The position numbers and the translations under genes are program-made. Of a stretch of 64,000 nucleotides of DNA, positions 5,468 through 54,457 are shown piece after piece (the first letter of the stretch is position 1; every line of letters begins with the position of its first letter). The stretch comes from an uncultured Candidatus Saccharibacteria bacterium (lineage in GTDB: Bacteria; Patescibacteriota; Saccharimonadia; CAZBQI01), in the NCBI GenBank assembly GCA_964494105.1, contig CAZBQI010000001.1:67126-131125 (forward strand). Direction: 5' to 3'. The notes under the pieces were generated by a model that worked only from the letters and a program-made list of their open reading frames with translations, was not told the origin of the DNA and made no database searches.

Positions 5468-5557
5468 TTTGGCCGTTTGCTATATAAAGATAGTGCGCCC
5501 GGCTATAGATGCTTTTGCTTGCATAGTAGAGGTAGGTGCAATGTATAATATTGCCCA

Positions 5558-8500
5558 ATGGCAAATAAGAGGCACGGACTTAGTACTCGCATTACGCAAT
5601 ACTTTATTGAGCATTCCCGTATTACCGTAATCGCGCTCGCGACATTAGTAACTTTTGGTATCATTTCACTGCTAACCCTAAAGACCAGCGGTTTTCCTAG
5701 CCCAGAAGTTAACTTTGTAGTTATTAACACAGCTTATCCTGGTGCGTCTTCGTCGACAGTGCTGAAGGATGTGACAAAACCAATCGAATCTAGCATTAAG
5801 CAAGTTGACGGGGTTAAATCGTATTCTTCACAGAGTCTTGATAATTTCTCTATCGTTACAGTAAACATTGATGAATCGGCTAATGCAGATGCCGTTAAGG
5901 CTAAAATTGATTCCACCGTGCGCTCGGTAGCATTGCCGGAAACCGCTAAAGACCCAGAGGTAGCCACACCAAAAATATCTAACGACGAGTACAGTTACGC
6001 AATTGTTAGTAAGAATGGCGACATCCAAACGGCTTATCAGGCGACAGATATACTACGCAAGAAGCTCGAGCAAGATCCGGCGGTCATTGCGGTTAATGTG
6101 GCCGGCAAACTAAAACAAGAAGTAGTTGTTCAGTTGGATGCAGCCAAGCTAAACGCAGCCGGTCTTACACAAGAAGAAGTTAGCAATCAGTTAAAGACTT
6201 GGGGTCTAGCTATACCTGCAGCCGAAAACGCTAACTTTAGCGCCAAAAACTACAACATCGTGTTAACTCTGAGTGGTAGTAGCCTCGAGGAACTGCAGAA
6301 TCTCATGATTGCCAGCCAAAGTGCTCCGTTTGGGGTAAAGCTTTCGCAGGTTGCGGATGTTGGGACCATGTTTAGCTTAGAAGATCAAGCAGACGATGTA
6401 GTCGGTTTTCGTAGCAATGGTGAGGCTAATGTAGAAAAGTCGGTAATCTTTGGGATTGATGTAGATGACAACGCCAACCTAAGCAAGTATGACCCCAAAC
6501 TGCAAGATACTCTAACAAAATATTTCGATCCGGATGCGGCCTCGCATGCAGAGCTAACGCCAGCTGAGCGCGAGCTTTTTGACCAAGTTGAATTAGTTGA
6601 TGTGTATAACACCAACACCGATAATCAGCGTCAGATTCAGGAAGTTTTGGCCGGTTTAGCTGGCGAGAAGTGGGGAATACCGGTTATTGGCTGGATTGGC
6701 TTCGCTTTTGGCGCTATTCAGTTGGTGTTTATTTTTATGATGATTCTGGTCAGTTGGCGAGCAGCCATCATCGCGGCAATTGCCATTCCGTTAAGTTTCT
6801 TTTTCTCGACGATTACGTTGCTGCTAACGGGTAACGACTTAAACACCTTAACGCTGTTTTCACTGGTGTTGGTGATTGGCTTAGTGGTAGACCCGGCCAT
6901 TGTGGTATTAGAGGTTATTCAACGCTACATAGATAAGGGCGAAAAAGGTAAGCAGGCGGTGCTGTCGGCAATTGATGATATTGGCTACGGATTATTTATA
7001 GCGGTTCTAACGTCAATTCTGGTGTTCATTCCATTTGGGGTTGTATCAGGTATTTTTGGTGCCATCATTGCCTATATTCCCCTCACTATTATTCCGGCTT
7101 TAATTGGTTCCTACATAGTGCCGCTAATCTTTCTGGCCTGGTTTGGTAGCAAGATTCTAAAGCGCCGACCAGGCAAGTCGCAAGATGAAGAAAAAAACTT
7201 GTGGCGTAGCGCTCGCTGGATGATCAAAACTAATCGTCGTTTACTAAATCTCGGAGTTTTGCCGCGAATTGGTATTATCATTGTTTCGCTTGTCTTGCCG
7301 TTTGTTGTAGCTGGTGTCTATTTGGGAAGTGGCCAAGTCAAAATGGTACAGTTTTCGCAACCCGAAGACGGTGAGTTTTTGCAGATGGTGGTGGCTAAGT
7401 ATCCACAAGCCTCTGCTATTACTACCGAGGCTAATGCCAAGCAACTGCTAAGCGAAATCATGAAAAACCCGAACGTGGAGTATGTTGCGCCAATCTATAG
7501 CCAAGGTCCCACAAACGTTAGCTACTTCATTAAGCTTAAGGACCCTAGTGAGCGCAAAGGCAATACGGCCAGTGAAATTGCCGATAATTTTAATCATGTT
7601 TTTGAAAATTCAAATGTAGATGATGTTTTCTTTGACGTTAATGTAAGCACGCTTAGTCCAGGGCCACCGAATGCAATATTCCCAATTAGCATTGGTATAA
7701 AAAGCCAAGACCTCAATATTCAATCCCAAGTAGCTGGTGATGTAACAAAGATACTCAATCAAATGTGCCATAGCGATAGTGGCTTTAGCGTAAATTCTAA
7801 TTGCTCAGATGAAAACAAAGTGGTTGTAAAAATAGATAATGGCCAAGGTGCTCAGGCCAATAAATTTATCGAAGTGCGGTTGGATCGGTCTAAACTATTG
7901 ATGAGTCCAGTTAACCCAATTGCTTTGCGTGAGCAGCTGGCAAGCGTATACCAGCTAAATAGTGGCGAGGAATTAGCTAAGCTCCAAAGTGGAAACGAAC
8001 AGCTGCCAATTATAATCGCGCAAAATAATCAGAAACCGGCGAGCATAAATCAGTTACAGGCAGTGCCAGTTTTGACACTAACTGGGCAGAGTGTGCCACT
8101 TGGTCAGATTGCGGATGTGCGCGAGGTGGAAAGCCCGGGCAGTATTCGACAAGTTGATGGCGAGGCAGTTGGTGTAGTTACGGCCAAAGTACAACCCGAA
8201 TTCTCCGATCAGCAAAATGCAGCACTAGTACAGCAAAAAGTAATTGATGAGTTCAAGAATAACTACAAAGGCAAATATCCTCAGGAATTAGTTGTAGAAG
8301 GCTACAGCGAGGGCGATGTTGCAAGTATTGCTAAAAGTTTTAGTGAGCTAGGCATAGCGCTGCTGCTGGCGATTGTGCTTACGTACTTGTTGTTGGTGCT
8401 GTTCTTCGACAGCCTGAGCATGCCGTTGGTTATCCTGTTTGCCATTCCGTTAACATTTCTTGGCATTTTCCCGGGCCTGGCTTACCTGGCAGGTGGTCAG

Positions 8501-11453: not shown

Positions 11454-14400
11454 ATGTCTAAGCCAAAACAATCAAACGCGCCCAAGAGCAATCTTAAAGT
11501 TCCTGATAATTCGCCGGTTACAGGGGCCGATTATTCAAATGCGGTCGGGACGCTACTATTAGAGAATTCAAAAAACAGCGCTCGTTTGCGACGTTGGGGT
11601 CTTTTAATGCTAGGGCTTCAGCTCGCCGGAGCAGCCCTACTAATAGTTACTGGATTGTCGTTCTTTAATACCTACTACAGCCAAAAGAATATCGAAAAAA
11701 TAAAGAAAGACCCACTTGGCGAAGTAAAGATAGATTTCCAAGACATTGCCAAAGGATCGATTGGGTTTGATCAGCTTGATCCAGGCGTTATTACCAAAAT
11801 TGAACAGATAGATCGCACTCTTTTAGGTCAGCAAGGTAAGGTTGGCCCCCAGGGGCCGGCCGGCTCGACAACCGGTTCGGTGATTAGTGTTGGGTCAGGC
11901 GCCGGCCTTACCGGTGGCACAATAACATCGCGCGGCACATTAGCAATTAGCGCACCAACCTGCGCCGCTAATGAACGGCTTAGCTGGACTGGCACGGCAT
12001 TTGCCTGCCAAGCTGTTGCCTCCGGCACTGCCTCCGGCACCAGCCCGATTGTGTTCGATAGCAACACTGGCGATATAAGTTGCCCCACGTGCCTGACTAC
12101 AGTTGGTATTGCGTTTTCGGCAGCAGCCGATAGTGGTACAGACCAAAATTTGAATATTGGCGATACCCTAAGCTTAATTGGTGGTAACGGTATTTCTACC
12201 GCTGCGTCACTTAGCAATAACATCACCTTTAGCCTTGTCGATACTGCCGTCACGCCCGGTTTCTATGGTACCACCAGCTCTGTACCGTCGTTTACCGTTG
12301 ATGCCCAAGGCCGAATAACTGCTGCCAGTGATACGGCGATTAGTATTAATGCCAGTGCTATTTCTGCGGGAACTCTATCTGTTACCCGTGGTGGTACCGG
12401 TGTCGATGGCTCAGGTGCTACCAATGGCCAGCTCCTGATTGGTAACGGCAGTGGTTACAGTTTAGCTAATCTTACGGCTACCGGTCCTTTGGGCGTTACC
12501 AATGGTGCCGGCACCATAAACCTCACTTGTGCAACTTGTGTTACGACCAGTGGTAACGGTGCCATTACCAGTTCTGGTGGCGATGTCACATTAAGCGGTA
12601 CTACAACTGGCCGGTTAATTGGCTCGGGCAATGTTAACTTTGATCTATCTTCTACCGGAGTGGTGGGTGCTACCTACGGTTCAGCCAGTTCAGTACCCGT
12701 CTTTACAGTTGATGGTAAGGGCCGCATTACTTCAGCCAGTAATACGGCGATTGCTGGTTTAACTAGTTCTAATTTATCGGGCAGTGCTGCCATCACTAAT
12801 GCCCAGTTACAAAATAGCGTTATCACCTTTAATTCGGGTAACGGCTTAACTGGTGGCGGGGCGGTGTCGCTTGGCGGCAGTACTAGCTTGGCCATTAGTG
12901 CGCCTACTTGTCTTTCAAACGAACGGCTTAGTTGGAGCGGGTCGGCCTTTACCTGCGCAACCGTTGCTGCAGGCGGTAGCCAGGCGGCGAACACCTTTTT
13001 TGCTGGGCCGAGCTCCGGCGGTGCGGCGGCGCCTGGTTTTCGCGGAATTGTTGCAGCCGATTTAGGTACCGGCACAGCTAATTCGCAATCCGTTTTGGCC
13101 GGTAACCAAACTTGGCTGCCATTGCTTGATGGCGGCGGCAAGATTTTAACCAGCCTATTGCCTGCCAGTGGTTTAAATTATCAAGGATCTTGGAACGCTA
13201 ATACCAATACGCCAAGCTTAAGTAGTAGTGGCGGCGGTGGCGTACAGGGCGATTTTTATATTATTGACGTGGCAGGAACAACCTCGATTGATGGTAATAG
13301 CACGTGGAACGTTGGCGACTGGATTCTAAATAATGGCGCAACATGGGATCGGATATCAAATACAAATGCGGTTAGTAGTGTTAATGGTCAAACTGGCGCG
13401 GTAGTACTAGATAGTGATGATGTATCGGAAGGCGTCAGTAACTTGTACTTTACCAATGCTCGTGCCCGCGGGGCACTATCCGGCACCGGGCCGATTAGTT
13501 ACAATTCCGGCACTGGAGTAATTGATTGCCCAACCTGTGTTACCACTAGTGGTAACGGGGATATTGTTTCCGGTACAGGCCTATCAATATCTGGCACAAC
13601 TACTGGACGACTCATTGGTACTGGCAATGTGACTTTTGGCTTGTCGACGGCTGTACCAACAAGTGTAGTAAACGACACCAACGTTACGGGCTCGATTTCG
13701 GCTAATGCTTTGACGCTGGGTTGGACTGGTCAACTATCAACAGCCCGTGGTGGTACCGGTGTCGATGGCTCAGGTGCTACCAATGGCCAGCTCCTGATTG
13801 GTAACGGCAGTGGTTACAGTTTAGCTAATCTTACGGCTACCGGTCCTTTGGGCGTTACCAATGGTGCCGGCACCATAAACCTCACTTGTGCAACTTGTGT
13901 TACGACCAGTGGTAACGGTGCCATTACCAGTTCTGGTGGCGATGTCACATTAAGCGGTACTACAACTGGCCGGTTAATTGGCTCGGGCAATGTTAACTTT
14001 GATCTATCTTCTACCGGAGTGGTGGGTGCTACCTACGGTTCAGCCAGTTCAGTACCCGTCTTTACAGTTGATGGTAAGGGCCGCATTACTTCAGCCTCCA
14101 ACACCGCCATTGCCCTAAACGCCTCTGCCATTACCGCCGGTACCCTCAGTGTTACCCGTGGCGGTACCGGAGTAGATGGTTCCGGCGCCACCAACGGCCA
14201 GCTGTTGATCGGTAACGGTACGGGGTACTCTTTGGCCACGCTAGCCTCATCCGGGCCTATTGGTATTACTAACTCCGCTGGTGGCATTAGTATTGGTTGT
14301 GCAACCTGCCTAACAACCGGTACAACCTTATTTACCGCGGCTGGTGATGTTGGTGTAAACCAAAGCGTGACCCAGGGCCAAACCATTACCTTTATTGGTG

Positions 14401-16385
14401 GCGTTGGTTTAACCACTACAGGTTCTGCTACCCGAAATATGACAATAGATTTGGATAATACCGCCGTCACCCCCGGTTCCTATGGTACTGCTAGTTCAGT
14501 AGGCTCATTTACTGTAGATGCGCAGGGACGAATTATCGCTGCTAGCAACTCATCGATATCTATCAACGCCAGCGCAATTACAGCCGGCACCGGGTCGGTA
14601 TCATTCACTTCTGCAACATCCAATGCAATTTCGCTCGACTCTGGAACAACCGGCGGGATAAATATTGGAACAGGTGCGAACTCGAAGACCATTACCATCG
14701 GTAACACTACCGGTACAACCGGTATTAACATCGACTCCGGTAGCGGTAACATTAATTTGCGTCCTGGTGGTTCCGGGACAACCGCTAATGTCCAAATAGG
14801 TGCTGGCGGGGCTGGCTCGACAACGCCCGATTTATTGGTGCTTGATAGAAAAAGTAGTGCCGGTGACCCTGCCGGTACCAACGGTGCAATGTATTATAAT
14901 GCTAGCTCAAATAAATTCCGTTGTTTCGAAAACTCCACCTGGAGGGACTGTATCAAGGGGTCAATAAACCTTGGTCATGCGGCCACCTACGACACGAACG
15001 AAGCCCTTACTAATGTGGCAGCTTCTCAGGTGACTCTCGGTACGGTATCTGTTACGCCAGCATCGGATACTGGTGATGTCTATGTAACTGGCAACGCGGA
15101 TGTCTATAGTAGCAACAATACCGACCAAACATTTGTATTTACCATAGAAACCGGGTCAACTTGTACCGGTACGACTGTGGCGACAAGGTCATATACAATT
15201 ACTGCATCGAACTCCGCAACGGTAGGCCGTGGCTCACTTGTAGTAAGTGGTATTGTCTCTGACCCCGGTGAGTCTTCGCAGGCATATTCACTCTGCGCAT
15301 CAACTGCAACAGGTGATACCGATGTTCTGAACTGGCGTATCGAAGCATTGGTTATTGAATCAGCAGGTGCTGATGTTGCGGAGATGTATTATACGCACGA
15401 TGATGCCCGGCCCGGCGAAGTTGTAAGTATTGACGGCAGTATGAAGGCTGGTGTTCGTAGATCAAACGGCTCGTACGATCCTATGGTGTTGGGTATTATA
15501 AGCACAAAGCCAGGGTACGTTCTTGCTGATGCTGAGGGGGTCGACCCTACGGCTAGGCCGGTTATACTGGCTCTTGCCGGTCGTGTTCCAGTCAAAGTTT
15601 CGGACGAAAATGGGCCAATAAAGGCTGGCGATGCGCTGACACCATCGTCGATACCGGGCGTGGCTATGAAAGCTACCCAAAACGGCTGGGTACTTGGCGT
15701 AGCCATAGAAGACCAAAAGCCAGGAGCGGGCACCTTGATGACTTTTGTGAATAGATCTTGGTATACAGGGGGCAGTAATAACCCCCCCTCACTGACCGGT
15801 ATGAGTTTAGGCGATGCAGATTTACCTGGCATAAAATCAGCCCAATCCGAAGGTGTAAAGAACGGCTTGCAATCAGAAAATCCGGAGTTGGTTGCTCAAG
15901 CTTTGGGCATTTTAAATGATATTCAAAATACGGTGGTAACCCAGCAAACCCAGCTCAACGCACTTGAAGCTAATCAAGCCAAAGCCAGCTCGAATTCACA
16001 GCAGATTAACCAAGCGATATTTAATGGCGGTATTGTGGCCGGCGATGTAGAGTTCCAAGGCAACGCCACCTTTAATGCTATCGCCACATTCAAGGGTCAG
16101 AGTGTCTTTAAGGGGGGTGCTATATTTGAAGGAGACGTAGCAATTAATGGGCGCGTGAAGTTCGGTGCTAATGGATCGGGCGTGGCAACTGTACCAGCCG
16201 GCGCCACGAGCGTTACAGTTAGCTTTACTAGCCCGTATGACGGACGGCCAATTGTAAACTTAACTCCTATAGATTACGACGGGAAATTCAAACTTAGTGG
16301 CGCATCGGCCGGTGGCTTTACGATTGTACTAGATTCGCCCGTGCCAAGCCCGGTAGAGTTTAACTGGTTAGCGAGTGAAAATTAA
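11454..16385 (+). CDS. giant (1643 aa) membrane-anchored repeat fibre protein (tail-fibre-like beta repeats)
   Basis: A cytoplasmic N-terminus of about 50 aa is followed by one TM helix (LLMLGLQLAGAALLIVTGLSFF). A short Gly-X-Y run follows (GQQGKVGPQGPAG). There are then many Gly/Thr/Ser-rich repeats carrying recurring CPTC / CATC motifs, including a protein-level repeat present in two exact copies. The C-terminal part is non-repetitive, with a coiled-coil-like segment (LNALEANQAKASS). Confidence 0.7.
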   Translation: MSKPKQSNAPKSNLKVPDNSPVTGADYSNAVGTLLLENSKNSARLRRWGLLMLGLQLAGAALLIVTGLSFFNTYYSQKNIEKIKKDPLGEVKIDFQDIAKGSIGFDQLDPGVITKIEQIDRTLLGQQGKVGPQGPAGSTTGSVISVGSGAGLTGGTITSRGTLAISAPTCAANERLSWTGTAFACQAVASGTASGTSPIVFDSNTGDISCPTCLTTVGIAFSAAADSGTDQNLNIGDTLSLIGGNGISTAASLSNNITFSLVDTAVTPGFYGTTSSVPSFTVDAQGRITAASDTAISINASAISAGTLSVTRGGTGVDGSGATNGQLLIGNGSGYSLANLTATGPLGVTNGAGTINLTCATCVTTSGNGAITSSGGDVTLSGTTTGRLIGSGNVNFDLSSTGVVGATYGSASSVPVFTVDGKGRITSASNTAIAGLTSSNLSGSAAITNAQLQNSVITFNSGNGLTGGGAVSLGGSTSLAISAPTCLSNERLSWSGSAFTCATVAAGGSQAANTFFAGPSSGGAAAPGFRGIVAADLGTGTANSQSVLAGNQTWLPLLDGGGKILTSLLPASGLNYQGSWNANTNTPSLSSSGGGGVQGDFYIIDVAGTTSIDGNSTWNVGDWILNNGATWDRISNTNAVSSVNGQTGAVVLDSDDVSEGVSNLYFTNARARGALSGTGPISYNSGTGVIDCPTCVTTSGNGDIVSGTGLSISGTTTGRLIGTGNVTFGLSTAVPTSVVNDTNVTGSISANALTLGWTGQLSTARGGTGVDGSGATNGQLLIGNGSGYSLANLTATGPLGVTNGAGTINLTCATCVTTSGNGAITSSGGDVTLSGTTTGRLIGSGNVNFDLSSTGVVGATYGSASSVPVFTVDGKGRITSASNTAIALNASAITAGTLSVTRGGTGVDGSGATNGQLLIGNGTGYSLATLASSGPIGITNSAGGISIGCATCLTTGTTLFTAAGDVGVNQSVTQGQTITFIGGVGLTTTGSATRNMTIDLDNTAVTPGSYGTASSVGSFTVDAQGRIIAASNSSISINASAITAGTGSVSFTSATSNAISLDSGTTGGINIGTGANSKTITIGNTTGTTGINIDSGSGNINLRPGGSGTTANVQIGAGGAGSTTPDLLVLDRKSSAGDPAGTNGAMYYNASSNKFRCFENSTWRDCIKGSINLGHAATYDTNEALTNVAASQVTLGTVSVTPASDTGDVYVTGNADVYSSNNTDQTFVFTIETGSTCTGTTVATRSYTITASNSATVGRGSLVVSGIVSDPGESSQAYSLCASTATGDTDVLNWRIEALVIESAGADVAEMYYTHDDARPGEVVSIDGSMKAGVRRSNGSYDPMVLGIISTKPGYVLADAEGVDPTARPVILALAGRVPVKVSDENGPIKAGDALTPSSIPGVAMKATQNGWVLGVAIEDQKPGAGTLMTFVNRSWYTGGSNNPPSLTGMSLGDADLPGIKSAQSEGVKNGLQSENPELVAQALGILNDIQNTVVTQQTQLNALEANQAKASSNSQQINQAIFNGGIVAGDVEFQGNATFNAIATFKGQSVFKGGAIFEGDVAINGRVKFGANGSGVATVPAGATSVTVSFTSPYDGRPIVNLTPIDYDGKFKLSGASAGGFTIVLDSPVPSPVEFNWLASEN
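12385..12737 (+). repeat. 353-bp perfect direct repeat, copy 1 (inside the giant gene)
   Basis: Identical by eye, base for base, to 13744-14096. Encodes RGGTGVDGSGATNGQLLIGNGSGYSLANLTATGPLGVTNGAGTINLTCATCVTT... Confidence 0.9.
13744..14096 (+). repeat. 353-bp perfect direct repeat, copy 2 (inside the giant gene)
   Basis: Identical to 12385-12737. The offset is 1359 bp, a multiple of 3. A third copy diverged at synonymous sites starts near 14157. Confidence 0.9.
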
Positions 16386-38369: not shown

Positions 38370-38621
38370 TTAACCGTACTTGATTTTGTATATATCAACA
38401 ATCAATACAAGACATAGCAATATGCCGTTGCCAAATATTATGACAGGGTCGTTCCTGGCTATGCCATATGTAAGCCACAGGCTCAAAGAAACTGTGGCGA
38501 TCAGTAGCCATATAAGCGACAAGTCCTTGGTATGTTTAGTTTTTACCGTCTTAACAACTTGCGGTATAAAACCAATAACACCTAGAATTCCGGCTGCAGA
38601 GCCAATGGCGTCAATAATCAT
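38370..38621 (-). CDS. SemiSWEET (PQ-loop / MtN3-like) sugar transporter
   Basis: 83 aa and 3 TM helices. The PQ motif is in TM1 (GFIPQVVKTVKTK). The size and pattern are typical of bacterial SemiSWEETs. Confidence 0.65.
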   Translation of the reverse strand: MIIDAIGSAAGILGVIGFIPQVVKTVKTKHTKDLSLIWLLIATVSLSLWLTYGIARNDPVIIFGNGILLCLVLIVDIYKIKYG

Positions 38622-45538: not shown

Positions 45539-45649
45539 TAACAATAGAGGTAGTAGGTAGCAGAGCTGTAGGATAACCTTATCCTGAACTGTGCTACGTA
45601 CAACTCACCCTAGAAGGTAGGTTTCCTCTTTAAAGAAAGGTATTTCCAT

Positions 45650-47782
45650 ATGTCGGATATTATTAATCCGTTTAACAAAAAACAACTAAAACTAACAACT
45701 CAATTCTGTGGTCGTGAATTAACTATAGAAACCGGTAACCTGGCCTTTTTAGCCGATGGTGCCGTAACTGTTACCTACGGAGAAACTGTAGTACTAGGTA
45801 CTTCTGTGGTATCCAATACAGTCCGTGAAGGTATGGATTATTTCCCACTACTAATTGACTACGAAGAAAAAATGTATGCGAGTGGCAAAATAAGTGGCAG
45901 CCGTTTTATTAAGCGCGAAGCCAGGCCCAGCGAGGCTGCAATTTTGGCTTGTCGCTTAATTGATAGACCTATTCGACCACTATTTCCCAAGGGCTTTCGT
46001 AACGACATTCAGTGCATTGCCACTGTTGTTTCGGCCGATCTAGTATATAGTTCTGACATTATTGCCATGATTGCTGTCTCTGCTGCGTTAACTCTTACTG
46101 GAGCTCCGTTTGCAGGCCCTATTGGCGGTGTACGAGTTGGTTTAATTAACGGCGAACTTAAGGCTTTCCCAACCAATGAAGAAATGAAAGACAGTAAGCT
46201 CGACCTCGTCGTAGCCGGAACTCGCGACGCGATTATGATGGTAGAGGCGGGTGCCAATGAAGTTGACGAAGAAACAATGATTAAGGCCATTGAGCTTGGT
46301 CATAAAGCCATTCAGCCGGTGATTGATTTACAAGAACAGCTAGCTAAAGAAATGGACGTTCAACCTCGAGAGTTTGAGCTTGAGTTGGTTGATCAAGATT
46401 TACAACAGCGAGTTGAAACCTACTTGCAGGAAAAACTTGGCCCGGCCATTCGCCACGAAGATCATTACGAGCGACATAATGCCATTCGAAATCTAAAGGA
46501 AGAAACCATTGAACACTTTGTTGGTGAAGGCGGTGAGTTTTCAAAGAATGATGTTGGCCAGGCGTTCGAAAACGCAGTCAAAGCCGATGTGCGCCGCTCT
46601 ATTTTAGAGGAAGATGCTCGTCCAGATAACAGAACTCGGGAGCAAATTCGCCCACTTTCTAGCCAGGTTGGTGTATTGCCTAAAGTACATGGCAGTAGCA
46701 TATTTACCCGCGGTACAACGCAAGCCCTGAACATTACGACTTTAGCACCGCCAAGCTACGGAATGCTTATAGACACCATGGAAGAAGACATAACGAAGCA
46801 CTTTATGCATCACTATAATTTTACTCCGTATTCAACGGGCGAGGCTCGACCGCTACGTGGACCAGGACGGCGTGAAATTGGGCATGGCGCACTTGCGGAG
46901 CGGGCGTTAACACCAATGATTCCGGATGTAGAGGATTTTCCATATACCATTCGAGCGGTTTCCGAAATAGTAAGTTCAAACGGTTCGACCTCGATGGCTA
47001 GCGTGTGTTCTACCACCCTTAGTCTTATGGATGCCGGTGTACCGCTAAAGAAACCGGTCTCAGGCATTGCGATGGGCCTAATAACAGAAGGTGAAAAGTA
47101 CGTTATTCTGTCTGACATTGCCGGTGCAGAGGATTTTGCCGGCGACATGGACTTCAAGGTCGCAGGAACTGCCGATGGAATTACAGCCTTACAGATGGAC
47201 ATTAAGGTCAAGGGCTTAACACCAAAGATAATGGACGATGCACTGGCTCAAGCCAAGCGTGGGCGGGCTCAAATTATGGAGCATATGCTTTCGACTTTAT
47301 CGGCGCCCCGAGCAGAGTTATCGCCCAATGCACCACGCATTACTCAGATAAAAATCAATCCGGAGAAAATTCGTGAGGTAATTGGCAAAGGTGGCGAAAC
47401 AATAAATAGAATTATTGACGAAACCGGTGCAGAAATTGATATTAAAGACGACGGAGTAATATTTATCAGCTCAGTCAAAGCCGAGGGCGCAGAGGCTGCT
47501 ATTGCCCAAATAAAGGCCATAACTACTGAACCTGAAGTTGGCCAAATATATCAGGGTAGAGTTGTTAAGCTAATGGATTTTGGCGCATTCGTGGAAATTA
47601 TGCCGGGCAAGGATGGTTTGGTGCATATCTCCGAGCTAGCCCATAATAGGGTAGAAAAAGTTAGCGATGTAGTGCGCGAAGGTGATACAATTCGAGTGAA
47701 GCTAATAGCTGTCGACGACAAAGGGCGCATTAATCTAAGCAAGAAACAAGCCGAAACCGGACCCACCCCCAACCCTTCATAA
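45650..47782 (+). CDS. pnp: polynucleotide phosphorylase
   Basis: 710 aa with two RNase PH domains, a KH domain (IGKGGETINRI) and an S1 domain. It follows rpsO in the canonical order. Confidence 0.95.
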   Translation: MSDIINPFNKKQLKLTTQFCGRELTIETGNLAFLADGAVTVTYGETVVLGTSVVSNTVREGMDYFPLLIDYEEKMYASGKISGSRFIKREARPSEAAILACRLIDRPIRPLFPKGFRNDIQCIATVVSADLVYSSDIIAMIAVSAALTLTGAPFAGPIGGVRVGLINGELKAFPTNEEMKDSKLDLVVAGTRDAIMMVEAGANEVDEETMIKAIELGHKAIQPVIDLQEQLAKEMDVQPREFELELVDQDLQQRVETYLQEKLGPAIRHEDHYERHNAIRNLKEETIEHFVGEGGEFSKNDVGQAFENAVKADVRRSILEEDARPDNRTREQIRPLSSQVGVLPKVHGSSIFTRGTTQALNITTLAPPSYGMLIDTMEEDITKHFMHHYNFTPYSTGEARPLRGPGRREIGHGALAERALTPMIPDVEDFPYTIRAVSEIVSSNGSTSMASVCSTTLSLMDAGVPLKKPVSGIAMGLITEGEKYVILSDIAGAEDFAGDMDFKVAGTADGITALQMDIKVKGLTPKIMDDALAQAKRGRAQIMEHMLSTLSAPRAELSPNAPRITQIKINPEKIREVIGKGGETINRIIDETGAEIDIKDDGVIFISSVKAEGAEAAIAQIKAITTEPEVGQIYQGRVVKLMDFGAFVEIMPGKDGLVHISELAHNRVEKVSDVVREGDTIRVKLIAVDDKGRINLSKKQAETGPTPNPS

Positions 47783-47788
47783 TTTTGT

Positions 47789-48409
47789 ATGTCCTCACAA
47801 TCCGAGCTCGACGCAGTTGCGTCAGAAATAGTTAAAAATAGAGTCTGCCAATGGCTGGCTGGTGGTGCTACTCAGTTAGTGCCGGGAGCCGGAAACCCAA
47901 AAGCTGACCTAATGTTTGTGGGCGAAGCACCGGGCAAAGATGAAGACATACAAGGCCTACCATTTGTTGGTGCAGCCGGTAAGTTTCTAAACGAGATGCT
48001 TGGTACTATTGGCTTGAGCCGAGAGGATATATTCATTACTAATATTGTTAAATATCGACCTCCAAATAACCGTGACCCTAGTCTTGAGGAAATAGAAGCC
48101 TTTATGCCGTACTTATATCGCCAAATTGCCATAATAAAACCAAAGCTACTTATTACTCTTGGTCGCCATGCAATGAACGTTTTTCTGCCCGAAGCCAAGA
48201 TCTCGAATATACACGGCCAACCGAAACGTCGAACATTTATCTTCAACAAGGATGAACAATTCAAGTTGGTCATACTGCCTTTGTTTCACCCGGCAGCAGC
48301 TCTATATAATGGGGGAATGCGTCAAACTCTTATTGACGATTTTGCCCGCATACCGCAAATATTAGAATTAATAAATAAGAAATCCAATAAAACACCGTTG
48401 TCTGCCTAA
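47789..48409 (+). CDS. uracil-DNA glycosylase, family 4
   Basis: The motifs GEAPGKDED and GLPFVGAAGKFL. Starts 6 nt after pnp. Confidence 0.75.
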   Translation: MSSQSELDAVASEIVKNRVCQWLAGGATQLVPGAGNPKADLMFVGEAPGKDEDIQGLPFVGAAGKFLNEMLGTIGLSREDIFITNIVKYRPPNNRDPSLEEIEAFMPYLYRQIAIIKPKLLITLGRHAMNVFLPEAKISNIHGQPKRRTFIFNKDEQFKLVILPLFHPAAALYNGGMRQTLIDDFARIPQILELINKKSNKTPLSA

Positions 48410-48437
48410 GGCAGGTAATAGGTAATGAAAGGAAAAT

Positions 48438-50414
48438 ATGAATCCATCAAAACCAACTAACAATCCGAACACCCAAGGGCAAAAGCGCCAGCCGGGTAGT
48501 GGCGGGGGCGCCGCCGGACGGGCAGCTAGGCGCAATCGAGAAATGGCTAGCAAACTGACAAGTAAACACGCCAGTGTTTCTGATGCCGAAAAGGCACGAT
48601 TAATAATGCAAAAAAAGCAAAACGGCAATTCGGTGTTTGCTCAAAGCGGATTAAAACTCACACCAATTGGCGGGCAAGACGAAATTGGTAGTAAAAACAT
48701 GCAAATAATTGAGTACGGAAACGATGCGATTGTAGTAGATTGTGGCAATAATTTAGGCGTGGACTTGCCGGGTATTAATTACACAATCAATGATTCTACG
48801 TACCTAGAGTCTATAAAGCATAAAATTCGTGGCTATATTATTACGCACGGTCACCTAGACCACATCGGTGGTATTCGCCATATTTTGCCCAAAGCTCCGG
48901 GCCCCGTGTATGGTACGCAGTTTACGATTGGTATGATTGAAAAGCAGTTCGAAGGCGAAACTTTTGACCTACAAAAAGTCATACTCAACTCTGACAACCA
49001 CGACCGCGTAAAGGTCGGACCATTTATGGTTGAGGCTATTCGGGTTACCCACTCAATTCCAGACTGCACATTAATGGTGATAGAAACTCCGGTTGGTAAA
49101 ATTGTACACACAGGTGACTTTCGATTAGACCCAGAACCGCTTGATCGTATGCCAACTGATTTGGCTCGTATAAATGAAGTTTGCAAAGACGGAGTGTTAT
49201 TGTTGCTCTCGGATAGCACTAATGCCGGAAAGCCGGGGCGCGTTAAGACCGAGGATACCTTAAGGCAAAGCTTTAAAGATATTATTGCTCATGCAAGAGG
49301 GCGCGTAATAGCGTCATTCTTCTCAACCAATATGAACCGAACTCAGATGACGATTGATGCCGCCGTAGCTGCTGGGCGCCGGGTGGCTGTTGATGGGCGG
49401 GGAATGCTCTCGACCATCGAAATAGCCGTTAAACTTGGCTACATTCGCATACCTAAAGGCACCATTGTTCCTATTCGAGATGTCCCGCGCATGCAAGATA
49501 GCGACGTGGTTATAATTTGCACTGGTGGCCAGGGCGAAGAAAACGCAGCACTGGTGCGTATGTCGACGGGCGAACACCAGCACGTAAAGCTAAAGCGAGA
49601 CGACACGGTTATTATTAGCTCAACTCCAATACCTGGAAATGAGCGTTCGTATCAGGATATTTCAGGTAATTTAGCGCAAATTGGGGTGCACTTGTTTCGG
49701 GCTATCACTACAGAAGTAGATGGTTGTGGCCCGTTACATGTTTCGGGGCACGCTAACCGAGATGAATTGGCAGAGATGATTGAAATGGTCAAACCAAAGT
49801 ACGTGATGCCAGTTCACGGTAGCCCCCTCGATCGCAGGTATCACCAACAATTAGCTATTCAATCTGGCATTCCAGAATTAAATGCATTAATGGTTAGTAA
49901 CGGTGACACTCTGGAATACAAGAATGACAAACTAGAAATTACTGGGCGCGTGCCAATTGGTGCGCATTTGGTAGATCAAACCGGCAATGTAGTGCCAGAC
50001 TTAGTTATTCACGATCGATTACTAATGAGCGAAGATGGTATTGTGGTGGTAGTACTAACAATCGATAAAAAGAACTCTCAACTGTTAACAAGCCCCGATA
50101 TCATAACTCGTGGGTTTATCTATATGAAAGAAAACGAGGTACTAATGAATGAATTGCGCAACGAACTACGTCGCTTTAGTTTGAGGCGATTTTCGCGGGT
50201 AGACCTGGTGCGATTTAAGCAAGAGTTGCGTGATCACGTAAACAACTTTTTGTTTCAGAATACTCAGCGCTCACCCATTATCATTCCGGTGGTAAATGCC
50301 GTTGGTTCAGGGGGGAATGCACAGCCGCAGTCAAATTCTAATGCCCAAAGACGACCGCAATCTCAATCGCGCTCGCCGAGGCCAAATAATCCGAGACAAG
50401 TTAACAATGGCTAG
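48438..50414 (+). CDS. rnj: ribonuclease J (metallo-beta-lactamase / beta-CASP)
   Basis: THGHLDHIGG motif and a beta-CASP region. A basic, Gly-rich N-terminal extension of about 75 aa and a Q/S/R/P-rich C-terminal tail are present. Confidence 0.85.
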   Translation: MNPSKPTNNPNTQGQKRQPGSGGGAAGRAARRNREMASKLTSKHASVSDAEKARLIMQKKQNGNSVFAQSGLKLTPIGGQDEIGSKNMQIIEYGNDAIVVDCGNNLGVDLPGINYTINDSTYLESIKHKIRGYIITHGHLDHIGGIRHILPKAPGPVYGTQFTIGMIEKQFEGETFDLQKVILNSDNHDRVKVGPFMVEAIRVTHSIPDCTLMVIETPVGKIVHTGDFRLDPEPLDRMPTDLARINEVCKDGVLLLLSDSTNAGKPGRVKTEDTLRQSFKDIIAHARGRVIASFFSTNMNRTQMTIDAAVAAGRRVAVDGRGMLSTIEIAVKLGYIRIPKGTIVPIRDVPRMQDSDVVIICTGGQGEENAALVRMSTGEHQHVKLKRDDTVIISSTPIPGNERSYQDISGNLAQIGVHLFRAITTEVDGCGPLHVSGHANRDELAEMIEMVKPKYVMPVHGSPLDRRYHQQLAIQSGIPELNALMVSNGDTLEYKNDKLEITGRVPIGAHLVDQTGNVVPDLVIHDRLLMSEDGIVVVVLTIDKKNSQLLTSPDIITRGFIYMKENEVLMNELRNELRRFSLRRFSRVDLVRFKQELRDHVNNFLFQNTQRSPIIIPVVNAVGSGGNAQPQSNSNAQRRPQSQSRSPRPNNPRQVNNG

Positions 50415-50421
50415 CATTGAG

Positions 50422-50680
50422 ATGCTTGGTCTTCTGGCGGGGGCGATCAACATCTGTTCGTTTATTCCATAATAATTAAATCGTAAATAATTAAATCGTA
50501 TCGGACAAAAGAAACGCGGTATCTTTCGTTGTTGACTTTTGTCTCGTTATTAGTTGGCACGGTACTTTGGTTTATTTATGGCGTAGCTATTAATCGTGCG
50601 TCTGTCTACATAACCAACGGCGTTTTTCTGTGTTTGCTGGCGGTTATTGTTTTTCAGGAGCTTCATTACAATAAGCGAAA
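50422..50680 (+). pseudogene. decayed SemiSWEET (PQ-loop) paralog
   Basis: MLGLLAGAINICSFIP then TAA (50470-50472), exactly where the Q of the PQ motif belongs. An exact 15-bp tandem duplication (aataattaaatcgta x2, about 50472-50501) follows. The remaining TM2-TM3 region is in another frame and ends at 50680. It parallels LSLIWLLIATVSLSLWLTYGIARNDPVIIFGNGILLCL of the intact copy at 38370-38621. Confidence 0.5.
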
Positions 50681-50731
50681 ACGATAGAATACCGGTAGCA
50701 ATTGCCCCATATACAGCGCTATAATAAGGCA

Positions 50732-52861
50732 ATGGCTAAACGAAAAAGCTCAAAAAAATCAGCATCAAAAAAGAAGCTCGAGAAAAAGTCAGGTTTTAAT
50801 AGTGAACTTGTACCTGAGATAATCGCGATACTATTAGTACTAGTTGCGATACTATTGGTTGTGGCCTTTTTTGGAGCTGGTGGTGCATTGAGTGCCGGTT
50901 TGCTTCGAGGTTTACGGCTGGTGATGGGTTTGGCTGCTTACTTATTGCCGTTTTTATTGGTATACATTGCCTGGCAACTATTTCAAAAAAACGAAGACTC
51001 TTCTTTCGGTGGATTTAGCTATCTTGGTTTGGCGCTTATCATTTTGGCGGCTGCGGGGCTTTTTCATGTTGGTATCAGCTCGAGTGAAGCACTTTCGGTG
51101 GCTCGTTCGGGCGGAGGCGGTGGTTTTTTGGGCTATGTTGAGCACCAGGCATTGTTAGCACTCTTTAACGTCTTTACCTCAACAATTGTATTGATAGCGG
51201 TTGGATTGATCGGCATTATTTTGGCAGCGAATGTAAAGCTCAGCGAATTAATATCCGGCCTATTTAAGCGTGAAGAAAATGAAGATTTGGCTAGTCAGTT
51301 AGCCAAGCAGGATGGTTCCCCCGGCAAATTAACAATTTCTGCCAAGGTGCCTCTAGAAACCGGTGGTGGTAGTAGCGAAAGCAATTCGCCAAAAGAAGAC
51401 GCTGTAGTACTAACAGCCAGCGCAGACCCGGACTGGAAACTACCCCCACTTGATATTCTGGAAGAAAAACAAGGCAAAGCTGATGCCGGCAAGCCGGAAG
51501 AAAACGCTGAAATTATTCATTCCACTCTTTCAAGTTTTGGAATTGAGGCAACCATGCAGGAAGTAAATATTGGTCCAACGGTAACTCAATACACCCTCAA
51601 ACCGGCAAGTGGAGTACGCCTTAGTAAGATATCTGAGCTAGCCAGCAACTTAGAGCTTTCGCTGGCAGCTCACCCAATTAGAATTGAAGCGCCAATCCCC
51701 GGAAAAAGCGCAGTTGGGCTGGAAGTACCAAATCACAAGGCGGCCACCGTTCGGCTAAAGCCAATTCTGCAGTCAAGCGAATGGGGATCACGAAAAAGCC
51801 CGCTAAGTTTTGTGCTGGGTCGCGATATTGCGGGGCAGGCAATAGTGGCTGATTTGATTAGTATGCCACACCTGTTAATTGCCGGTGCCACCGGTTCCGG
51901 TAAATCGGTTATGATTAATACTTTCTTGTTAAGTTTGCTATATCGAAATTCACCGGCAGACTTAAAGTTAATTTTGGTTGATCCAAAGCGTGTCGAACTA
52001 AGTTTGTACGAAGACATACCGCACTTGCTAGCACCGGTAATTGTAGAACCGGAAAAATGTATTTCAGCCCTAAAGTGGGCAACCGCCGAGATGGAACGTC
52101 GCTATAGCGTATTTGCCGAACAGCACAAAAGAAACATTGCTGAATATAATACAGCTAACAAAAACGAAACCATGCCCTACATTGTGGTTGTTATAGATGA
52201 GTTGGCAGATTTAATGAGTTTAGCCGCAAACGACGTAGAAAGTTTGATTGTCCGCTTGGCACAGAAAGCTCGTGCAACCGGTATTCACTTGGTACTAGCT
52301 ACACAGCGACCGAGCGTAAACGTTATTACGGGGCTCATTAAGGCCAATGTGCCGGCTCGTATTGCTTTCAGCACGGTTAGCCAGGTGGATTCACGTACCA
52401 TCATTGATCAAGCCGGGGCTGAAAAGCTACTGGGTAAAGGCGATATGCTGTTCTTGGCGCCGGATTTTGTTAAATCAAGGCGAATTCAGGGTGTGCTGAT
52501 TGATGAAAAAGAAGTTAAAGGTGTAACTGACTTCTTACGCAATGCTCGCGAACCACAATACAATGAAGAAGTGTTATCGCAGGATGTGCGTCTGGGTGGA
52601 GGTAAGGGTAGTTTTGGCGCTGTTGACGATGTTGACGACAGTTTGTTTCTCGATGCGGCCCAATTAGTTATCGAAAGTCGCAAGGCCAGCGCCAGCTTAC
52701 TACAGCGTCGTTTGAGGGTTGGCTATGCCAGAGCGGCGCGATTGCTCGATATGTTAGAGGAGCGCGGTATTGTCTCGGCTCCGGATGGATCACGTCCACG
52801 AGATGTTTTAGCTACAAGCATGAGTGAAGTTATGGGGGAAGATGCGGAACCCCAGACCTAA
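50732..52861 (+). CDS. ftsK: DNA translocase FtsK/SpoIIIE
   Basis: Start taken at ATG 50732 (MAKRKSSKK). N-terminal TM helices, Walker A (GATGSGKSV), Walker B (VVVIDELADL), and a C-terminal gamma winged-helix domain. Confidence 0.85.
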   Translation: MAKRKSSKKSASKKKLEKKSGFNSELVPEIIAILLVLVAILLVVAFFGAGGALSAGLLRGLRLVMGLAAYLLPFLLVYIAWQLFQKNEDSSFGGFSYLGLALIILAAAGLFHVGISSSEALSVARSGGGGGFLGYVEHQALLALFNVFTSTIVLIAVGLIGIILAANVKLSELISGLFKREENEDLASQLAKQDGSPGKLTISAKVPLETGGGSSESNSPKEDAVVLTASADPDWKLPPLDILEEKQGKADAGKPEENAEIIHSTLSSFGIEATMQEVNIGPTVTQYTLKPASGVRLSKISELASNLELSLAAHPIRIEAPIPGKSAVGLEVPNHKAATVRLKPILQSSEWGSRKSPLSFVLGRDIAGQAIVADLISMPHLLIAGATGSGKSVMINTFLLSLLYRNSPADLKLILVDPKRVELSLYEDIPHLLAPVIVEPEKCISALKWATAEMERRYSVFAEQHKRNIAEYNTANKNETMPYIVVVIDELADLMSLAANDVESLIVRLAQKARATGIHLVLATQRPSVNVITGLIKANVPARIAFSTVSQVDSRTIIDQAGAEKLLGKGDMLFLAPDFVKSRRIQGVLIDEKEVKGVTDFLRNAREPQYNEEVLSQDVRLGGGKGSFGAVDDVDDSLFLDAAQLVIESRKASASLLQRRLRVGYARAARLLDMLEERGIVSAPDGSRPRDVLATSMSEVMGEDAEPQT

Positions 52862-53590: not shown

Positions 53591-54457
53591 TTGCCAATGA
53601 ATTGGATTACTGCTAGCTTACTGATGTTCGCATCATCAGTTGCTCTCTATTTGGTGGTTCGGAAAGCGACACTTTTAAAGGTGCCGACGCACATTACCAA
53701 TTTAGCGATGTTCACAATTCCATTGGTTTTCTTTGTGTTGTTGCATGCTGGCAAAGGGGAATCCTACTCAGTGTCATTCAGTGGAATCGCTATACTTCTG
53801 CTTGCCGGTATAATTTTTGCTTTTGGCGGTAACACTGCTTCTTTGCGCGCAATCAAAGAGGCGCCGAATCCGGGTTATAGCCTTGTACTGTCAAAAAGCT
53901 ATGTTTTGTTTACGACTATAGTTGCTCTAATTATTTTCAATGCCGAACTATCAATACGAAAGGCAATTGGAATTTTAGTTATCGTTGGTTTTTCGGCACT
54001 CATTATGGTCGATCCATCTAAGACTAAAAAAATGGCGAAAAAGAATCACTGGCTTGCTCTCTCGATAGGTGCATTTTTTGCCTGGGGTTCATTATCACTC
54101 TCCGCTAAGTACCTGTTTAATAATGGCCTTGGTACATATACGTTCTTACTTTATCTTTATCTGGTAGTCACGATATGCATACTAATAAAACTGTTTGTCG
54201 ATCGGCAGAAACTATATCATATTATGGATCATAAATGGGTACTGTTATTTATTGGAATATTCTCTACGACTTTTAATTTATTTCAGTTTGAGGCAATTAA
54301 GTTGGCACCAAATATTGGGTATGTTAATGCAATAAACGCTGGTTCAATCGCGCTTGTGACTGTACTGGCCGTTCTTGTATTTAAAGATGACTTTTCGATT
54401 AAGAAATTTATTGGTGTAGTCGGTGTGATCGCCGGTATAATTATGCTACTTGTATAA
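53591..54457 (+). CDS. EamA/DMT-superfamily transporter (10 TM)
   Basis: 288 aa with two 5-TM halves of EamA-like pattern. Confidence 0.55.
   Translation: MPMNWITASLLMFASSVALYLVVRKATLLKVPTHITNLAMFTIPLVFFVLLHAGKGESYSVSFSGIAILLLAGIIFAFGGNTASLRAIKEAPNPGYSLVLSKSYVLFTTIVALIIFNAELSIRKAIGILVIVGFSALIMVDPSKTKKMAKKNHWLALSIGAFFAWGSLSLSAKYLFNNGLGTYTFLLYLYLVVTICILIKLFVDRQKLYHIMDHKWVLLFIGIFSTTFNLFQFEAIKLAPNIGYVNAINAGSIALVTVLAVLVFKDDFSIKKFIGVVGVIAGIIMLLV

Follow-up and report, generated by a model that had tools for sequence, protein, structure and literature searches.

A SemiSWEET gene between rnj and ftsK, very probably inactivated only recently, in an uncultured Saccharimonadales bacterium

SemiSWEETs are three-helix PQ-loop sugar transporters which, as seen in solved structures, work as dimers of complete three-helix bundles. 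Young pseudogenes of host-dependent bacteria in reductive evolution arise via slipped-strand duplication and nonsense or frameshift mutations. In phase-variable contingency loci, a tandem repeat in the 5′ part of a surface or membrane protein gene breaks the reading frame. Here, we describe a locus that shares features with all 3 and lies in a 64-kb stretch of DNA (64,000 nucleotides; hereafter, the window). Like the SemiSWEETs of Thermodesulfovibrio yellowstonii (4RNG), Leptospira biflexa (4QNC), and E. coli (4X5M), the relic encodes three helices and the residues Trp50 and Asn66; unlike working SemiSWEETs, it has a reading frame disrupted at the PQ motif by stops, a duplication, and a frameshift, and Tyr in place of the conserved Asp34. 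It resembles young bacterial pseudogenes in carrying few, clustered lesions in an otherwise undamaged coding sequence, in having an intact ortholog in relatives and a dN/dS at the level of purifying selection, and in the retention of a redundant paralog. By contrast with the pseudogenes of reductive evolution, it stands alone, 94% of the window being coding, rather than being one of many in a pseudogene-rich genome. The likeness to phase-variable loci, a frame-breaking tandem repeat in the 5′ part of a membrane protein gene, is offset by the presence of only 2 repeat copies, by a 15-nt unit that is a multiple of three, and by the extra nonsense and 1-nt lesions. Among the papers listed in a literature search for SemiSWEETs in Saccharibacteria or CPR bacteria, none mentions SemiSWEET, and a search for the sample accessions found no paper naming them.

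SemiSWEET remnants in the gap between rnj and ftsK

The 317-bp gap between rnj and ftsK is the largest non-coding stretch in the window. Its features, those of the flanking genes, and a second SemiSWEET gene of the window are as follows.

48438–50414, + strand: rnj (RNase J), the upstream neighbour; stop codon at 50412–50414, overlapped by the pseudogene start (ATG)
50407–50469, + strand: N-terminal remnant of SemiSWEET-B, 21 codons, MASIEMLGLLAGAINICSFIP
50470–50475, + strand: TAA TAA, stops in the N-terminal frame, at the place of the Gln codon of the PQ motif
50471–50500, + strand: exact 15-bp tandem duplication, AATAATTAAATCGTA twice (50471–50485 and 50486–50500)
50484–50486, + strand: junction TAA in the C-terminal reading frame, …IIKS*IIKSY… in the frame translation
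50487–50687, + strand: C-terminal remnant, 66 codons (50487–50684), IIKSYRTKETRYLSL…HYNKRKR, with TAG at 50685–50687
50688–50731, + strand: upstream leader of ftsK, outside the pseudogene, filling the rest of the gap
50732–52861, + strand: ftsK, the downstream neighbour, with its ATG at 50732
38370–38621, − strand: SemiSWEET-A, the intact, surviving copy, 83 aa

The N-terminal remnant covers TM1, ending at the Pro of the PQ motif, and shows 100% amino acid identity with residues 1–21 of P0001, an intact ortholog from related bacteria. Its likely start is ATG 50407 (MASIEM...), which is located 8 nt inside rnj and is also used by the intact ortholog. The 5′ ORF (…MLGLLAGAINICSFIP) ends at TAA 50470–50472, with a second TAA at 50473–50475. 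The C-terminal remnant, in the −1 frame relative to the N-terminal one, comprises the loop, TM2, and TM3; this second frame reads ...LLTFVSLLVGTVLWFIYGVAINRASVYITNGVFLCLLAVIVFQELHYNKRKR and, more fully, across the junction stop, …IIKS*IIKSYRTKETRYLSLLTFVSLLVGTVLWFIYGVAINRASVYITNGVFLCLLAVIVFQELHYNKRKR*. It is open and homologous from 50487 (IIKSYRTKETRYLSLL...), directly after the would-be Gln, and no coding sequence has been lost. Several of these features had been recognized in a first-pass annotation of the DNA. Its claim that the gap is not empty is borne out by the Pfam matches and the syntenic ortholog, and the TAA reported at the Q of the PQ motif (50470–50472, CAG in the intact ortholog) and the exact 15-bp tandem duplication are both present. 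Two boundaries had to be moved: the ORF said to begin at 50422 exists but more likely starts at ATG 50407, and the different frame described as resembling TM2–TM3 from about 50529 likewise exists but is already open at 50487.

For the family assignment, the 2 remnants were joined and the Gln restored, yielding a repaired protein of 88 aa. This translation matches the Pfam families PQ-loop (PF04193; E = 1.6e-11, 44.2 bits, gathering cut-off 22) and MtN3_slv (PF03083; E = 2.1e-9, 37.7 bits, gathering cut-off 23.7), the latter being matched also by the C-terminal piece alone (E = 4.9e-8, 33.3 bits). Among the SemiSWEETs in the PDB, the best match is 4RNG (E = 2.2e-16), followed by 4QNC, 5UHS, 4X5M, and 9KAX; the repaired protein can be aligned with the solved SemiSWEETs end to end, and its hydropathy profile contains 3 hydrophobic segments. 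Consistently, the AF2 model of P0001 (pLDDT 82.6) consists of helices at residues 2–29, 37–56, and 60–87, and its top 11 fold matches in the PDB are all SemiSWEETs, with modest TM-scores of about 0.55. W50 and N66 form invariant columns in the homolog alignments A2 and A4; we take these positions to be the Trp and Asn that line the sugar pocket in the solved structures. On this evidence the relic is a SemiSWEET by descent, one that lacks the uninterrupted ORF and the PQ motif of the family. Compared with known SemiSWEETs, it represents a divergent, lineage-specific subtype, with at most 49% identity to P0001 among the representatives of a library of 1.8 billion proteins. The best full-library matches to P0001 are P0128 to P0131, proteins of ~190–210 aa that each match it twice and are fused, two-repeat, SWEET-like proteins.

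SemiSWEET-A and the repaired SemiSWEET-B are 35% identical (BLASTP E = 3e-19), so that the similarity to the protein encoded at 38370–38621, pointed out in the first-pass annotation, is far above chance. Given that the identity is only 35%, the 2 copies are old paralogs or xenologs rather than products of a recent duplication. An ortholog of SemiSWEET-A (P0002), 93% identical, is encoded on the same contig as one of the P0001 genes (contig L002), and relatives found elsewhere are 65–90% identical. SemiSWEET-A thus appears to be the conserved copy, and the one between rnj and ftsK an accessory and labile copy.

Relatives of the locus and the age of the inactivation

The window evidently belongs to an uncultured lineage of the Saccharimonadales (Saccharibacteria/CPR), closer relatives of which are represented only by metagenome contigs. 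All loci linked through RNase J come from metagenome-assembled genomes of Saccharibacteria/Saccharimonadales. The nearest GTDB species representative by RNase J is only 52–56% identical, and the GTDB representatives found via RNase J (≤56% identity) have no SemiSWEET within 4 kb of rnj; the species or genus of the window thus lacks a close representative in that set. Metagenome loci found via alignment of the SemiSWEET were distant only (33–44% identity) and uninformative. The slot between rnj and ftsK in closer relatives, with RNase J identity to the window, is occupied as follows.

L002 and L003, RNase J 93%: intact type-1 SemiSWEET of 88 aa, 92% identical to the repaired copy
L065, RNase J 93%: intact type-2 SemiSWEET of 84 aa, 50–54% identical to the window/L002 type
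L066, RNase J 84%: slot empty, rnj–ftsK spacing of 33 bp
L067, RNase J 80%: no SemiSWEET-like sequence, gap of 145 bp

The protein shared by the first 2 loci is P0001, recovered in the protein search. The contigs, L002 (80.6 kb) and L003, originate from different samples and have the same gene order as the window (…pnp–udg–rnj–SemiSWEET–ftsK–HTH gene…); intact orthologs at the same position, a prospect raised in the first-pass annotation, thus do exist. P0001 was the only protein returned by a word-index search with the repaired protein, in which the window's own lineage was not represented by an intact allele, and a scan of JGI metagenomes for any allele of the lesion site (TGTTCKTTTATTCC N{5,35} TCGTATCGSACAAAAGAAAC) gave 0 matches. 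Exact-protein look-ups with the FtsK and UDG of the window retrieved no further contigs of the same strain, and the look-up with ribosomal protein S15 led to 3 short contigs in 3 samples, none reaching the locus; SRR30350710 and ERZ27258501 carry the identical S15 gene. As neither an intact nor an intermediate allele of the window's lineage was found, the lesions can be ordered and dated by inference only.

Over 87 codons, the remnant and P0001 differ by 40 synonymous and 8 non-synonymous substitutions (pS 0.63, pN 0.040), corresponding to a dN/dS of 0.03, with dS near saturation. The respective values for neighbouring genes are 0.037 (rpsO), 0.015 (pnp), 0.015 (ftsK), 0.026 (ssb), and 0.12 (udg). 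A dN/dS of 0.03, within the range of the neighbours, suggests that the inactivation is very recent, nearly all of the divergence having accumulated under purifying selection. As a rough bound, the period of inactivity would be short compared with the time that has passed since the L002 lineage split off; with dS near saturation, the age is only roughly bounded. The recently inactivated paralog proposed in the first-pass annotation is thus supported, with the qualification that the 2 copies do not stem from a recent duplication.

The comparison with L002 also brought to light an effect of the overlap between rnj and the SemiSWEET gene. A synonymous GCA to GCT change in the Ala2 codon of the SemiSWEET creates the TAG that ends rnj (window 50410–50414 versus L002 8004–8014), and rnj ends 2 codons earlier in the window (…NNG*) than in L002 (…HGKY*), showing the mutual constraint of the 2 overlapping genes.

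Downstream of the relic, the 44 nt preceding the ATG of ftsK are nearly invariant among the window (50688–50731), L002 (8268–8312), and L065 (~5565–5608); the corresponding stretch of L066 is 2122–2154. Between the window and L002, this leader contains an exact run of 35 nt and is far more conserved than the flanking coding DNA. It includes a palindrome, GCAATTGC, at 50698–50705, and a TATAAT at 50720–50725, 6 nt before the ATG of ftsK, an arrangement (TATAAT-N6-ATG) that is kept also in the more distant L066. The leader could serve ftsK as a promoter, giving a leaderless or near-leaderless mRNA, or its palindrome could be bound by a regulator. A promoter and terminator scan yielded no more than expected by chance, and an Rfam scan of 50300–50850 gave no match. 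Elsewhere in the window, the intergenic region between the S15 gene and pnp (45546–45696), 79% identical to L002 overall, contains a run of 72 nt that is identical in the two; this run is probably a conserved pnp leader or a regulatory RNA structure.

Lesions at the PQ motif and their possible readings

In the base-level alignment, the intact orthologs read TTT ATT CCG CAG ATA ATT AAA TCG TAT CGC around the PQ motif and the window reads TTT ATT CCA TAA TAA TTA AAT CGT AAA TAA TTA AAT CGT ATC GG. The net difference of +14 nt equals the 15-bp duplication minus 1 nt; the duplication is absent from L002 and L003, which show the 14-nt net gap. The Pro codon of the PQ motif (50467–50469) is retained, and a C to T change has turned the Gln codon (50470–50472) into TAA; P0001, the L065 gene, and paralog A all have the motif intact. 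A deletion of 1 nt at the 50470–50475 site, within an A-run, shifts the frame, so that the ORF is interrupted by TAA TAA (50470–50475), by TAA (50484–50486), and by the change to the −1 frame. From a presumed ancestral CCA CAA ATA ATT AAA TCG TAT, the duplication alone would already produce a stop at its junction (…TCG TAA ATA…). The gene therefore carries 3 independently disabling features, namely, the duplication with its own junction stop, the nonsense codon, and the frameshift, all within 30 nt. In addition, the C-terminal remnant shows a radical change, D34Y (TAT, 50520–50522); every aligned homolog (P0001 to P0007, paralog A, the L065 gene, 4RNG, and 4QNC) has Asp at this position.

The AATAATTAAATCGTA pair is the highest-scoring tandem repeat of the 64-kb window (TRF score 60) and one of only 2 exact tandem duplications with a unit of 12–40 nt, whereas locally shuffled sequence contains 0.02 on average. 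The other exact tandem duplication with a unit of at least 12 nt, TGCCTCCGGCAC twice at 12017–12040, is located in frame within an ORF of 1643 aa (11454–16385).

In line with the homology, the lesions, the syntenic intact orthologs, and the low dN/dS, we consider it very probable that the SemiSWEET copy at 50407–50687, an accessory gene, was inactivated very recently and is no longer functional. Of its 3 lesions, given here in no particular order, the 15-bp duplication probably arose by replication slippage in an AT-rich stretch, a C to T change converted the Gln codon to TAA, and a 1-nt deletion shifted the frame. Ribosomes finishing rnj may restart at ATG 50407 and would release, at TAA TAA, a TM1 peptide of at most 21 residues. 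The TM2–TM3 part seems to have no plausible start or ribosome-binding site, and hence no transporter would be made. Loss of SemiSWEET-B may be tolerated because the more widely conserved SemiSWEET-A is still intact, and the conserved element upstream of ftsK probably insulates that gene.

The alternative that fares best, and which the first-pass annotation had offered, is that the organism itself has an intact gene, the stop, duplication, and frameshift having been introduced by errors in an AT-rich repeat. In its favour, the affected stretch is AT-rich and of low complexity, and an A-run is the site of one of the lesions, the 1-nt change. However, a contig from a second assembly (L001; Logan, SRR30303755) is 100% identical to the window over 4004 bp (47850–51853), all lesions included, which makes sequencing error unlikely, even if the read set of this second assembler's contig may coincide with that of the window's source assembly. 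Moreover, at least 2–3 distinct errors (the exact 15-bp duplication, the substitution, and the 1-nt deletion) would have to coincide at a single spot. Apart from the +14 nt, every indel that falls in coding DNA in the 9-kb alignment with L002 has a length divisible by three, so that the sequence of the window does not look indel-prone. D34Y, which radically alters an Asp conserved in the other homologs, is likewise consistent with relaxed constraint. We therefore regard an artefact as very unlikely.

Even less credible is that the gene still functions, be it through a phase-variable repeat switch, programmed frameshifting or read-through, or a split protein made of TM1 and TM2–TM3. The undamaged state of the remaining coding sequence, with its 66 open codons, and the concentration of the lesions at one repeat-containing site speak in favour of function. 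Phase variation is rejected since no gain or loss of repeat copies would reopen the ORF: removal of one 15-nt copy gives CCA TAA TAA TTA…, which is still stopped and still in the −1 frame. One frame contains 2 consecutive TAA codons and the other a further TAA. Programmed recoding is rejected on the grounds that the interrupted arrangement is not conserved, all 3 orthologous loci (L002, L003, and L065) being plain uninterrupted ORFs. As for a split protein, the C-terminal frame offers no canonical start before TTG 50529, which would omit the loop and the beginning of TM2 and is preceded by no Shine-Dalgarno-like motif discernible by eye, and the assembly of SemiSWEETs from complete bundles also counts against it. 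The weakest alternative, that the PQ-loop resemblance is a product of chance in a hydrophobic-looking intergenic translation, has only the short length of the fragments in its favour and is refuted by the Pfam (E = 1.6e-11) and PDB (E = 2.2e-16) matches, by the 92% identity to a real gene, P0001, at the syntenic site, with mostly synonymous differences, by the base-level alignment, and by the dN/dS, leaving it a negligible probability.

Gene turnover at the junction and meaning of the relic

In L065, the flanks are closely related to those of the window (FtsK 92.5% and PNPase 96.6% identical), and its SemiSWEET gene (5298–5552) corresponds to window 50357–50683. Sliding-window nucleotide identity of L065 to the window/L002 falls from 80–90% to ~50% exactly across 50357–50683 and then recovers sharply. 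This pattern appears to indicate replacement of a cassette (allelic or xenologous) in L065 or, otherwise, very fast and extreme divergence. The cassette is flanked by imperfect direct repeats, GGCTAGCATTG at 50409–50419 and GGTAGCAATTG at 50694–50704, which are short enough to have arisen by chance. In L066, in which the gene is absent, there is a single hybrid copy, GGTAGCATT (2116–2125), containing the rnj stop. We mention the pattern of GGCTAGCATTG, GGTAGCAATTG, and GGTAGCATT, which would fit a repeat-mediated deletion or insertion, as a lead rather than as a result.

Another small transporter varies within the clade. A gene of the EamA family (53591–54457), located between an HTH_25 gene and rpsF, is present in the window, L065, and L066 and is cleanly absent from L002, which has a gap of 113 bp at this site and no trace of the gene by tblastn.

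It is conceivable, if rather doubtful, that the rnj–ftsK junction in this clade of Saccharimonadales is a small hotspot of transporter-cassette turnover. If so, a sugar-uptake gene would be gained, lost, and replaced through repeats at the junction, and the turnover might follow shifts in the hosts or nutrient sources of these episymbionts. Cassette turnover among close relatives is the only mildly novel aspect of the locus. Since the slot shows replacement as well as absence in relatives, gene turnover describes it better than one-way reduction; the first-pass view of a snapshot of ongoing genome reduction was overstated, there being just one large non-coding gap in the window, 94% of which is coding.

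The relic itself is an ordinary, textbook young pseudogene and implies no new biology or mechanism. Its main value lies in annotation: the 317-bp "intergenic" gap should be annotated as a SemiSWEET pseudogene, and the organism should be counted as having 1 working SemiSWEET rather than 2. Beyond that, the locus provides a clean, dated example of the loss of a small accessory transporter in an episymbiont with a reduced genome, in which the accessory sugar transporter is evolutionarily labile among relatives while the other SemiSWEET copy is conserved.
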